Assembly: GCA_964016885.1 (NCBI GenBank)
Contig: OZ024757.1
Coordinates: 35,278,001-35,342,000, forward strand
From: Eledone cirrhosa
Taxonomy: Eukaryota
DNA: 64,000 bases
Direction: 5' to 3'
Positions 26,031 to 62,636 of the stretch are shown piece by piece (within the stretch, counting starts at the first letter, position 1; each line of letters starts with the position of its first letter). The notes beneath the pieces are model-generated. The model was not told where the DNA came from. It searched no databases and saw nothing but the letters and a program-made list of their open reading frames with translations. The position numbers and the translations under genes are program-made.

Positions 26031-26388
26031 AAAGAAAAAGAGATGAAATCGAAAATGCAACTGAAGTCTTATTTTTTTTTTAAATATATATATTTATTTG
26101 GTTCCTTTACCGGTTTTGCAGTTCTTCTGCTTTTCAAAAGGTGAGTTGAGATGGAGGGTCTGTGGTTTTTCTCAGATGTGAGAAAAACCACAGACCCTCC
26201 ATCTCAACTCACCTTTTGAAAAGCAGAAGAACTGCGAAACCGGTAAAGGAACCAAATAAATATATATATTTTTTAAAAAAATAAGACTTCAGTTGCATTT
26301 TCGATTTCATCTCTTTTTCTTTATACTTCCACTCGTGTAGGACACCTCGGTTATTTTTCACTTTGTAAAAAAAACCTCACTTTCTAAT
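26031..26388. mobile_element. Fold-back HHR-bearing element, family B
   Basis: Near-perfect palindrome 26031-26174 / 26179-26323 within (TA)n; homologous to 49857-50135. Confidence 0.8.
26212..26249 (+). ncRNA. Minimal type I hammerhead ribozyme, U3-A8 core variant
   Basis: cctt TTGAAAA gcag-aagaa-ctgc GAAA ccgg TA aagg. Stems I and II pair, stem III is palindromic (accggt), and the cleavage triplet is GUA. Confidence 0.7.
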
Positions 26389-27309
26389 ATATATAGGTGT
26401 GTGTCCTTCTTTCTGCTGTTTTCCGTTTTTCGCTGCTATTTCTAAAGTGTCCATACATGCTAGAAATAGCAGTCAAATACACCAAACAAACTGCACACCC
26501 GCAAAATTTTTGCCTCGATTTTTGCGATTAAGTAAGACAAGAGTTATCTTTCTTGGCAAATTGTTAAAAAACTTTTGCCTGATTTTAAGCCAAAGTTTTT
26601 TAATGGCTGCCACTTCCGGTTTTTGTTGTGCGTCTACAGGACTGCAGTAAACCTGCTAGAAATAGCAGTCATAGCAACACACTCACATATATTTATTTAT
26701 GAGGGATTCTCAACGTGGGGTGCACGCCCCACAGGGGATAATTTGAATATAATAGAGGTCAATTTGAAAGTGATATAATACGACCAAGCTTCCAGATACA
26801 CTTCGTATACACATGTTATCGTGTATCTGGCAGCACCTACGAGAAGTTTGTTTACATTTTGAAGTTTGTTTTGATCATCGCTGCCACGCAGCTTTGTTTA
26901 AATAAAGGGTTTCTACTTTATATTACAGTAATAAAAGTTTTACTTCGTCTACACATGTTATCGTGTATCCGGTAGCACCTATGTGCTGTTCTCATCGCAG
27001 GTTTGTTTAATTAAAGGTTGCGAGGGGGATCACTGATATATATATATATATATATATATATATAGAGAGAGAGAGAGAGAGAGAGAGAACGAAAAGACAC
27101 ACACATATATATACATACACGCAGACATACACCTGTGTGTATGTGTATGTGCGTGTGTGCGTGTCTTTGACTGCTCTCTCTCTCTCTCTCTCTCTCTCTC
27201 TTTCTCTCTGTGTATATATATACAGACACACACTGTTGTTTCTTGATTTTTAGCTGCTGTTTCTAAAGTGTCTATTAATATATGCTAGAAATAGCAGTCA
27301 AGGGAACAT

Positions 27310-27711
27310 TTACGTATATATATGTAAGGACAGTGACACCTGCTGCAACAGGCATCCAACCTCGTGGGACTCCATCCTCAGACGGGCCACAGACACTCCG
27401 ATGTTGCGGAGGAGCTCGGCTGTAATGGGTCCAAGTTGGCCTGGGGTCTCGACGGCGCCTGGTGCGTAGAAGAAGCTCCAGGACAAACACCGGAATTTGT
27501 TTATTTTATGTTCATCTGCGAGACGGGCAGCGATGCTGGGGTTTGTGGATCTACCTCCTTCGAATGGGAAGAGGGTGATTCCCTCGGGGTGCTTGCCATC
27601 TCCGCGGCCTAGGCCTGCTGGCTCCAGTTGAAATGGAAATTCAGCTGCGTCCAGGCTTCTTCTCACTATGTCGTTGAGAGCATTTATGTGGCTCACACAC
27701 GCGGAGGCCAA
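27310..27711 (-). mobile_element. CRE-clade non-LTR retrotransposon fragment (degenerate RLE domain)
   Basis: H..LNDIVRRSL...EPAGLGRGDGKHPEG.TLFPF..G (RPD motif decayed) ... AVETPGQLG ... LLQQVSLSL; the WDVT segment is missing. Confidence 0.8.
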
Positions 27712-28377
27712 GGCGTTGGGCTACTCCGGTGCGAGTTCAATCATCATCAAGAATTTATTTGAATTGAAAGGTCACTAAACTAATATAGGAGTGTCATTTA
27801 AAAATAAGGTAAACAGAAATAGTTACACCGGTAACATAATTACTGTTACACCGGTAGTTCACTAACAAATCATTTCACGTTCGTCTCTAACAGGTAATGT
27901 TTTAATTTGCTATCCATGTTGGGGAGTAACTGTAGTTTGGCTTGCTAGGGGTCATACATCTTCATACACACACACATACTATACATATATATAATTATAT
28001 GTAAAGTCAGCTCCGTATTTAGCACAAATGAGGCATGTTCTAGTTATGAGGCCTCTTTCTTTGGCTCAGTAGGATGTAGGCTTGTTAAAATAATTCTTTT
28101 GGTAGGAAGATGGGCCCTCCTGTGTAGATTCCTTCCTTAATATTTCAGATAGGAGCGACCGTTTATGTCTTCCTTTAGTTGTTCATTCCTTATTTTCAGT
28201 AATGTCCTTTCCGACCATAATTATGTCGGCGACGTAAGCATAAGTCTAATTTATTCTTTAATGAAGGGTAGATCCTTCGATAGTGGAGGCCCGTGGTCTT
28301 ACGATCATATGTGTATTCGATTCCTGGACTGTGTTGTTAGTTGTTTTACTTGAGCAAAAACTTAATTTCACATAGGT

Positions 28378-28500
28378 GGGGGGTTAACCCTGCGATGGAC
28401 TGACATCATGTCCAGGGGGAAGTCATGTACTCTCAGTCCCTTTACGCTAGAGGAACTGGGACAGGCACCTGCTTGATAAGTCTCCAGGCTTGAGCTGACT
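28378..28500 (+). mobile_element. SINE central/3' fragment (Meta-domain-like)
   Basis: accctgcgatggactgacatcatgtccagggg...tactctcagt; related to 39300-39425, 39845-39960 and 54350-54440. Confidence 0.6.
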
Positions 28501-28924
28501 TTACACTTTGGAAATCCTTAGATATTCTTCTTGGTGATATATTTGTTAGCTTTGACTTTAATTCATCTGTTTACACCACTAATAATTCATAGATAGAAAA
28601 ACGTTTGTGGCTTTAGTACACCTTTAGGCTTTAATTTCAATTACTGACTATGTCTAACGAAGTAATAACTGGAGCTACTAAACCAGGGTTTCCTAACCTG
28701 GTGATATCAACCACCGGTGGCCGATTTCAACTTGGTCGCTTCGGCCACAAACCCGGGTACCGCGGCCCACGAAGGAAAGGAAGATAAACAAATATCAGAG
28801 GATTGTCCGGCTTCTTCCTCTTGGCACCTGTAGCCACCATGACGTATAAGTATAAATATATATATCATCATTTTCATTTTACGTCTGCTTTTCCCTGTTT
28901 GCAAGGGTGGGACATATATATATA

Positions 28925-60716: not shown

Positions 60717-61059
60717 CTGCAAGTAGAAGTTAAATAGCATCACACAGAGAAACATATATATAAATATATACATACATATATGTACACACACACACACACA
60801 CATACACACATATATACATCATCATCAACATCATCACCGTTTTACGTCCGTTCTTCTACGCTAGCATGGGTTAGACGGGTTGTCCTGTTGTGAGTAGTGT
60901 CCATGCCTTGCTCATACGGGAACTGATTTTGGCTTGATTTCTACAGATGGATGCCCATCCTAACACCAACCTCATTTACAGTGAGTGCTGGGTTTTTTTT
61001 GCCGTTGTGCCTACACGTCCACTTTGCAGTGGAATGATAGGGACCCCAGTCCCTATCAT

Positions 61060-61203
61060 CTCATTTCTACAGCTGAGTAAACTGGAGCAATGTGAAATAA
61101 AGTGTCTTGCTCAAGGAAACAACACATCACCCGGTCTGAGAATTGAACCCACAACCTTTCGATTGCAAGGCCAATGCTCTAACCACTAAGCCATGTGCCT
61201 CCA
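61060..61203 (-). mobile_element. tRNA-headed SINE in GPCR intron
   Basis: Minus strand ggcacatggcttagtggttagagc (A box) and gggttcaattctc (B box). Confidence 0.7.
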
Positions 61204-61931
61204 TATATATATCCTAAACGGACGGCAGTCCGTTTAGTAATATTGTTGTGGTCGTGTTTTCGTTGGCAATTATGCATTCACATTATGCATGACACATGAG
61301 GCGTGTCGCCGAATGATGAAATAGGGGTATGGTTATGGCCCAATTGGTGTTCAAACCAGGATCAAATGATCCCCCCAGTCTGACGACGACCTCTGAATGT
61401 GGAACCCAGAGCCTATGAATGTGGAACTCGATTTTTTACCAATAAAAATATTGCCACTAATATTATTGTAAAATTTTTTATTTCTTGTCCAATTCTTTAA
61501 AGTTTTATCTTAGTTTCTTGTCCTATTCTTTTAAAGTTTTATCTTAGTTTCTTGTCCTATTCTTTTAAAGTTTTATTTTAGTTTCTTGTCCTGTATTTTT
61601 AAAGGTTTATATTCCAACAATATTACTTTTTTTTGCTGTACGCATTTTTCTATCTGGTATATATATCTGTGTGTGTGTGTGTGTAATCTGAGTTTTCTCG
61701 AATATTAGTAATATTATTCGATTCGTTTTCAATTATGCAAACAAGCCTCTTTTAAAGCCATGTCAGTAGAATGAGCCCCTCATTCTTGCTCTTGTGTTAG
61801 CATTTAAATCCTGCCTCAGCAACAACAATAACAACAGGTATAATAACGACAACAGTAACAACAATATAAACTCACAACAATATAAACAACAATATAATAA
61901 ACAACAATATAAACTCAGTATAATAACTCAC

Positions 61932-62141
61932 TCTGAAATTATCATTCATGAATCCATATATGATTGGATTCATAAAACTGTGTGACATGGCGAGCCAATG
62001 AACGCTTATATATAGGCTCATGGCGTTAGAGAGAATATATTGGTAAATACCCGGATGGTAGTCGTTTATCAGCGTGATGACATGGATAGGTAACCAACAG
62101 ATTCCAAACAGGACTACAATTGTAACTAGCATTTTGACGAC
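61932..62141 (-). CDS. TM6-TM7 exon of a rhodopsin-class neuropeptide receptor (tachykinin/RYamide-luqin/GPR83-like group)
   Basis: tcttttcag|VVKMLVTIVVLFGICWLP...HWLAMSHSFMNPIIYGFMNDNFR|gtgagt, with CWxP and NPxxY motifs; 210 bp, phase 0/0. Upstream exons were not found in the window. Confidence 0.92.
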
Positions 62142-62410
62142 CTGAAAAGATATATATCAATGTATAGATGTATGTGTATTGTATGTGTATATATACATAT
62201 ATACATACATATATATACATACATATATAGATGTGGACAAAATTACATTAGAGCTTGAAATATCTAAATTATATGAGTTTATGATGCAACTGTATAATAC
62301 AGTTGTATCATAAACTCATATAATTTACCTTATATATATATATATATATATATATATATGTGTGTGTGTGTATATATATATATATATTAGAATTGGTGCT
62401 CTGAAATAGC

Positions 62411-62636
62411 TATATATATATGAATGTATATATAGTGTATTTTGCAATACACTATGCTTAATTAAAAGCATTTTGAAGACCTTATGCTATTGTTTTAGAG
62501 TAGTGACAGACTCACTGAAAATTAAAGTAAGTGAGTCTGTCACTACTCTAAAACAATAGCATAAGGTCTTCAAAATGCTTTTAATCAAGCATACAGTGTA
62601 TTTCAAAATACACTATATATACATTCATATATATAT
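62411..62636. repeat. Fold-back palindrome of a diverged relative of the 310-bp unit
   Basis: Arms 62411-62516 / 62530-62636; shares tgctctgaaatagc..tgaat..cattttgaagacct with the 310-bp unit. Confidence 0.75.

Follow-up and report, generated by a model that had tools for sequence, protein, structure and literature searches.

Penelope-like elements (PLEs) that carry an endonuclease (EN+), such as Neptune, Penelope/Poseidon, Nematis and Hydra, combine a reverse transcriptase (RT) with a C-terminal GIY-YIG domain, and published accounts describe for them partial-tandem terminal repeats, heavy 5' truncation, a head-to-head inverted truncated copy, a tail at one end and (TA)n targets (PMC8557442; PMC3846280). 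The head-to-head form is reported as the most frequent arrangement (PMC3846280), and the mechanism behind the inverted truncated copy, the one-end tail and the (TA)n bias is treated as open (PMC8557442). The same anatomy was found in a 64,000-nt stretch of Eledone cirrhosa DNA (GenBank assembly GCA_964016885.1, contig OZ024757.1, positions 35,278,001 to 35,342,000 of the forward strand; hereafter the window), which holds five families of hammerhead-bearing repeats, designated A to E. The fold-back geometry shared by these families is real and is the known PLE signature. The inverted pairs are probably insertions in which the two target strands are both nicked by a PLE enzyme and serve as primers for synthesis from the same RNA source.

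Other described systems share parts of this anatomy. The minimal hammerhead ribozymes of PLEs have a palindromic stem III for dimer folding, a short stem I and an extra base before stem II, as do the motifs described here, and a core of the U3-A8 type has already been reported, as have pairs on opposite strands at distances of 100-700 bp (PMC4209133). Metazoan retrozymes without long terminal repeats (non-LTR) are tandem units of low GC content, each with a single type I hammerhead and without an open reading frame (ORF) (PMC7229834; bioRxiv 10.64898/2026.07.22.740005), a description that also fits family A and its sister A2, with units of 310-320 nt; a PLE partner and local amplification have been proposed for such elements (bioRxiv 10.64898/2026.07.22.740005). 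The A arrays differ from these retrozymes in being head-to-head double arrays with PLE tail and short ends in (TA)n and with one haplotype across both arms. The word "inverted" is absent from the main text of PMC7229834 and occurs in bioRxiv 10.64898/2026.07.22.740005 only in a reference title, and a literature search of main texts found neither head-to-head retrozyme arrays nor a counted rule of one tail and one short end. Two questions become testable now: one is the origin of the inverted structures of PLEs (PMC8557442; PMC3846280), the other the machinery that moves retrozymes in animals (PMC7229834; bioRxiv 10.64898/2026.07.22.740005). Since A is young, comprises thousands of units and carries haplotype markers, each A insertion records its template, and single-haplotype head-to-head arrays with PLE ends provide a clean test bed for the mechanism.

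Hammerhead families, polarity and coding partners

A strict type I hammerhead descriptor that requires a palindromic stem III matched the window nine times (A 5, B 1, D 1, E 2), against 0.04 matches expected from 100 block-wise dinucleotide shuffles (maximum 1). The matched motifs have the conserved core and the three stems of a type I hammerhead, and their ribozyme activity is predicted from sequence and folding. Family C and the D copy at 50.5 kb match a looser hammerhead pattern only, because an irregular stem II base hides them from the strict descriptor. An earlier note on this DNA had described the five families, and all of them were present at the loci it named; its further statement that they share no obvious sequence beyond the core agrees with blastn, which gave no match at E<0.01 among natural terminal-repeat copies of A-E. 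The palindromes that it had listed for stem III (ACGCGT, ACCGGT, ATGATCAT, ATATATAT and AATT) are also present, although several window copies have decayed: the core is damaged or stem III is non-palindromic in the B left arm at 26.1 kb, in B at 49.9 kb, and in C at 53.4-53.7 and 50.6 kb. The core itself varies by family. It is U3-A8 in 66 of 67 distinct B copies, canonical in 38/39 C and 39/46 D copies, and mostly U4C (CCGAAGA) in E (29 of 44, with 11 of 44 canonical), a form that does not appear in the accessible part of PMC4209133. Family A shares a U.U mismatch at the base of stem II with the axolotl motif HHR_Amex2. An Rfam scan of the window returned no hammerhead family among the 150 listed of 285 matches, those listed being microRNA-type hairpins only.

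The six named inverted pairs of the window all have an antisense left arm and a sense right arm, as the earlier note had claimed. A seventh pair was recognised for D at 50.3-50.6 kb, and C at 38.9 kb and C at 50.6 kb are single arms, not pairs. In the 3.0-Gb assembly, where the window lies on contig C18, exact matching of 24-32-nt motifs gave 4,300 (A), 13,116 (B), 5,387 (C), 3,921 (D) and 2,965 (E) matches, and reversed control motifs gave 0; when the genome was searched by DNA similarity, the A unit found no match, and exact patterns were used for the counts. Positions for polarity and for the B-E loci come from the first 100 matches listed per family, all on contig C1. Among these, consecutive opposite-strand B-E matches up to 5 kb apart are head-to-head in 75 cases and tail-to-tail in 3 (p 5e-19), and two of the three exceptions adjoin separate head-to-head pairs. 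The counts are 76 against 0 for adjacent B-E pairs and 28 against 0 for two-armed A arrays, so that the claimed polarity extends well beyond the window.

Sampling of 39 evenly placed 10-kb stretches (390 kb) yielded 24 strict motifs from many further families, that is 62 per Mb as compared with 141 per Mb in the window, where five of the nine motifs belong to one array. A-E loci numbered 18 in the 390 kb and 10 in the window, which is somewhat denser than the genome average and not unique. With stem III left free, 8 matches were palindromic and 5 non-palindromic (0 and 0.7 in shuffled sequence), so the palindrome is common and not universal. Further hammerhead families were noted at L244, L245, L249, L254, L259, L266, L268, L273, L274, L276 and L278, and those of the sampled stretches include other U4C cores and full stem III types.

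Judged by their sequence, B and E are 5'-truncated terminal repeats of EN+ PLEs with RT and GIY-YIG domains. A genome search with PF01541 matched at least 150 places (150 scored of 10,595 candidates). At locus L093 a 5-kb unit is bounded on either side by the B repeat (95-96% identity with the copy in the window), and its 938-aa frame matches RVT_1 at E 2e-6 (28 bits, below the 29.6 cut-off) and GIY-YIG at E 2e-6. The linker motif of this protein, CX4CxxC, is of the Neptune/Nematis type; E lacks this motif, and the clade is assigned by motif only. At L222, E forms a 3.1-kb partial tandem whose 900-aa frame matches RVT_1 at E 6e-16 and GIY-YIG at E 4e-5. The two proteins are 24% identical, and their frames contradict the label "non-autonomous" that had been given to these two families. 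The E tail translates into the start of the 900-aa frame, as the tail of an anole PLE does into its own ORF (PMC11167929).

The first B pair of the window consists of a short-ended left arm (26028..26180, minus strand) with a damaged core (GAAA to AAAA) and a right arm (26173..26393, plus strand) with a 70-nt tail and a U3-A8 core at 26216, which corresponds to the terminal repeat of the 5-kb PLE; its (TA)n target lies at 26002..26031. The second pair (49852..50135) joins a tailed left arm at 49852-50016 (minus) to a short right arm at 50006-50135 (plus). Other B copies reach 5' into the element body over variable lengths. The E left arm (55434..55781, minus) has a U4C core at 55741 and a 48-nt tail that contains the likely first ATG of the ORF, and it is interrupted at ~55538-55709 by a repeat resembling a short interspersed element (SINE). 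The E right arm (55781..55975, plus), with a U4C core at 55823 and a short end at (TA)n, corresponds to the terminal repeat of the 3.1-kb PLE.

Family D is probably the terminal repeat of a coding PLE. At L173, broken frames that contain a YRDD motif and a stretch rich in Cys are found 1.7 kb upstream of D; such frames recur at L174, L160 and L387, and the ORF remnant gave a weak Pfam match to RVT_1 only (E 0.034), with no GIY-YIG match. The D pairs of the window are a tail-only left arm at 50322-50422 (minus) with a short right arm (plus, core 50499), spanning 50322..50590, and a short left arm (minus, core 54037) with a right arm (plus) that runs from stem III into a ~110-nt tail, spanning 53946..54262. 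Family C forms the borders of a 3.1-kb unit that recurs in five or more loci; the unit at L171 has no frame >100 aa and no tblastn match to five probes at E 0.05, and so lacks the coding part of an EN+ PLE. C appears to be a long non-coding derivative, and a coding subfamily may exist elsewhere. In the window it comprises a single arm with a short end at (TA)n (38879..39046, minus, core 38991, stem III ATGATCAT), a degenerate single arm flanked by two (TA)n tracts (50637..50741, plus), and a pair (53388..53873) with a short left arm (minus), a right arm (plus) whose ~140-nt tail runs to (TA)n, and a decayed stem III. The tails extend the arms as noted earlier to 55434 (E left), ~53870 (C right) and ~54260 (D right). 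B-E are ordinary PLE families, abundant and previously undescribed but of known type.

Family A has a unit spacing of 310 nt, within the 150-450 nt that define a retrozyme unit. Each unit has one type I hammerhead, ORFs are absent and the loci are dispersed; its arms reach up to 18.7 units. The left arm of the window copy (46514..47233, minus) holds 2.3 units, with predicted cores starting at 46984 and 46674 and a short 3' end running into (TA)n, and the right arm (47233..48360, plus) holds 3.6 units, with complete cores at 47545, 47855 and 48165, a truncated core at 47235 and a 35-nt tailed 3' end at (TA)n; the two overlap by 1 nt at the junction. In 18 arms at nine loci, 16 mismatches to the window unit were counted in 29,569 bases, one arm with an indel being left out, and 8 of the 16 are locus-wide variants and 8 singletons. 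On this sequence evidence A is a very young 310-nt tandem retrozyme.

Target, ends and arms of the pairs

The B copy at 26.0 kb sits in a duplicated segment, and 11 empty paralogs hold pure (TA)8-14 at that place, while the two filled loci (the window and one paralog) read (TA)15-17, B pair, (TA)4, with no host sequence lost. Together with the B and E frames, this bears out the link to PLEs and to TA tracts that the earlier note had drawn. (TA)3 stands at one or both outer ends in 66/76 B-E pairs (scored at alignment ends), in keeping with the (TA)n insertion of PLE anatomy.

Both outer ends of the pairs fall at fixed element positions. Among 34 A loci, 28 were two-armed and the rest single-armed or cut by the end of the stretch; in 28/28 two-armed loci one arm ends at unit position 152-170 and the other at 187-203. 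One tailed and one short end were found in 28/28 pairs of A, 27/27 of B, 15/15 of C, 13/13 of D and 17/21 of E, which gives 100/104 overall, with 0/104 short/short, a rule near absolute here. The four E exceptions are tail/tail; two of them resolve as inner tandem copies with tail/short outer ends, leaving L224 and L233. L227 carries an interrupting insert, and L213 and L215 appear to be a single event that was duplicated. Short ends coincide with an internal TA-like motif of the element. In E the tail end is precise (12/20 share one position), and the element has no TA behind it. Tail lengths range across the families from 35 to ~140 nt, as compared with the 30-40 nt reported for EN+ PLEs (PMC8557442; PMC3846280). 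No A boundary falls at the predicted cleavage site (unit position 31), the nearest 5' ends being at 17, 18, 34 and 35.

The two arms of a B-E pair repeat one and the same 3' sequence for as far as both extend. Among 72 B-E pairs with one tail and one short end, the short arm outreaches the tail arm on the 5' side by >12 nt in 24, the reverse holds in 18, and the two end within 12 nt in 30; in E the tail-less arm extends up to 1.7 kb beyond the tailed arm (L225, L226). Since either arm can reach further 5', neither is simply a copy of the other. The junction phases of A differ by 34-155 nt in 26/28 loci, the correlation of arm lengths is weak (rho 0.42, p 0.027), and tail-arm 5' ends are scattered over the unit, 4/28 lying within ~20 nt of the short-end site against ~3.6 expected.

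The two A arms share the haplotype of their locus in 27/28 loci, with 15 haplotypes in all and a chance match of 0.15 per locus, a null that is not a genome frequency, the loci having been picked partly by variant patterns. The variants 307G (440 units, ~10%) and 123G (47 units, ~1%) occupy both arms where they are fixed, and at 7 loci with a lone 123G unit the arms match at the remaining sites. In B-E the divergence within pairs is 2.3-3.9%, a quarter to half of the 4.9-12.9% between pairs.

Origin of the inverted pairs

Priming by two target strands from two sites is favoured because the arms overlap fully and either one can reach further 5'. The reaction of a purified PLE protein in vitro involves cutting and extension of both strands, begins at two sites that delimit the tail and does not need the ribozyme (PMC11167929). 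In the proposed course of events, the PLE enzyme would nick both strands of (TA)n, and each nick would prime reverse transcription. The complementary DNA (cDNA) of the tail end likely starts at a site set by the protein, and that of the short end likely 35-140 nt upstream, where a TA-like motif in the RNA matches the target. The two cDNAs would then converge, each ending at a variable point, and be joined through 0-5 nt of microhomology, a short filler or an occasional fold-back. The likely template for A is RNA in circular or multimeric form, in which case the whole double array would be laid down in one event. A carries the full PLE insertion signature without an ORF, which would be direct genomic evidence of retrozyme mobilisation by PLE machinery; A and C would both depend on a partner. 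A more specific version is tentative, and we hold it with less than even confidence: one circular ribozyme RNA would be copied repeatedly by the PLE enzyme from two primers, at two sites 35 nt apart, laying down the array in one step, and the same rule of two starts on one RNA would explain the inverted-plus-tail anatomy of all PLEs.

Several observations count against dual priming of one RNA source. Symmetric junctions, with 5' ends within 12 nt, exceed permutation in B-E (B 13/27, E 6/21, C 5/15 and D 7/13); many lie at one position per family, likely the 5' end of the RNA, and some lie mid-element, as self-priming would give. At L347, the sole exception among the A loci, one arm has a mixed haplotype, 2/6 of its units carrying the allele of the other arm, and this arm adjoins a near-symmetric junction (2074-2078), the most symmetric among the A loci, which suggests two templates plus fold-back or conversion. 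Unit-specific A variants are shared in register in 2 cases and unshared in 34. The sharing of haplotypes would also follow if one source locus supplied two RNAs, or if one arm were converted by the other. The in vitro start sites are alike on both strands, which leaves the one-tail/one-short rule unexplained (PMC11167929), and no coding partner was found for A at 30 pattern loci or in four A2 stretches, or for C in the L171 unit.

Snap-back self-priming, in which one cDNA folds at a hairpin and copies itself into an inverted arm, has been hypothesised for the head-to-head PLE repeats of rotifers (PMC3846280). The excess of symmetric junctions, L347 and the variants common to both arms speak for it, and it may account for a minority of events. 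As the general origin it is unlikely, given that the tail-less arm reaches further 5' in 24/72 pairs, by up to 1.7 kb in E, and that the A junction phases lie 34-155 nt apart in 26/28 loci. Only slightly less probable is that two RNA molecules from one active source locus are each primed once by an asymmetric enzyme dimer. Such an origin would explain the independent 5' ends, the weak correlation of arm lengths (rho 0.42) and L347, and the PAc protein is predicted to be a dimer (PMC11167929); yet one source locus would have to dominate each event despite at least 15 A haplotypes, and a built-in asymmetry would be required for the absence of short/short pairs (0/104). Dual priming at two starts on one RNA source fits all of these observations, be it on one molecule or on two from one locus.

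Twin priming at TA tracts was the explanation offered in the earlier note, and the part of it that stands is priming from both target strands, by which L1 twin priming is defined (PMC5668948). The L1 event also has antisense-left/sense-right polarity and small junction indels (PMC5668948), and it is conceivable for a multimeric A RNA. In the L1 sense, however, a second primer invades upstream on one linear RNA and the 5' remainder is inverted, whereas the arms here both repeat the same 3' end, those of B-E overlap fully, and there is no poly(A) tail; the tail-arm 5' ends of A are spread instead of clustered at the short-end site. We regard this origin as very improbable. Overlapping arms, either of which may be the longer, argue against both L1-style twin priming and pure snap-back. 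An equally remote prospect is satellite-type expansion with inverted duplication after insertion, or an artefact of assembly. Local amplification has been proposed (bioRxiv 10.64898/2026.07.22.740005) and does occur, as an A2-type array of at least 20 kb on contig C8 shows, and no independent read spans a window junction among the four sequencing runs compared. Against these stand outer ends at two fixed element positions, one class on each arm, junctions that differ at every locus, and B-E arms that differ by 2-4%. A later insert breaks up one arm in the window, and strand-changing joints inside B and D recur in contigs of run X1, a partial independent support for the palindromes. Dual priming of one RNA source by a PLE enzyme is thus preferred.

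The sister retrozyme A2 and other sequences

The sister A2 has a 320-nt unit and shares 73-80% of the 3' half of A. Its window copy is a head-to-head pair (62386..62636, both strands), 5'-truncated downstream of the hammerhead and with the tail on the left arm; no hammerhead is present in that copy. Loss or exchange of the A2 ribozyme was ruled out by an alignment that shows an A2 hammerhead, the stem III of which is not a perfect palindrome, a further departure from the general palindrome of the earlier note. Its core covaries among 19 copies (C3-G8 in 5, U3-A8 in 13, wobble in 1). The array on contig C8 (L410-L411, 32,227,000-32,246,999) consists of 318-nt A2-type units with higher-order variation and is a retrozyme-derived satellite. 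Three matches ~5 kb apart on C8 had been a candidate for the partner of A and belonged to a long array of satellite type; copies resembling A beside a PLE ORF in L189 turned out to be a separate inverted pair. L387, among the A/A2 loci searched for a partner, holds D-type remnants.

About half or more of the A words were present in 20 sequencing runs under 18 organism labels, and none of the listed runs holding them is of RNA. Of the four runs compared with A, X1 contains nearly the whole stretch, and X7 and X10 have one unit-length contig each, of 331 and 340 nt, which align to 48050-48354 of the window with 0 and 2 differences; X10 also has trace pieces of D and other repeats, and the raw reads of run X23 contained no A. 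The presence of A in runs of other organisms may reflect contamination, diet or transfer, and no transfer is claimed.

The insertions account for most of the palindromes at 46-63 kb, as had been supposed, and not for several others in the window. Interleaved 46-bp and 24-bp GA-rich satellites occupy 1-21400 and 35949-38760 and switch strand at ~10.56, 36.1 and 37.9 kb, which gives large palindromes without hammerheads (inversions of the 46-bp satellite at 9.5-11.9 and 35.9-38.6 kb). An inverted repeat of 515 bp (96%) surrounds a TA-rich centre (25263-25810 and 26387-26943) and is separate from the B element; it belongs to a repeated segment clustered on contigs C18, C20, C23 and C25 (88 exact matches). 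Short near-perfect palindromes without a family assignment lie at 62264-62328 and 31698-31783, the latter being the 31.7-kb hairpin likewise left outside the insertions. Minisatellites of 97 bp and 128 bp were found at 42453-43633 and 49086-49399.

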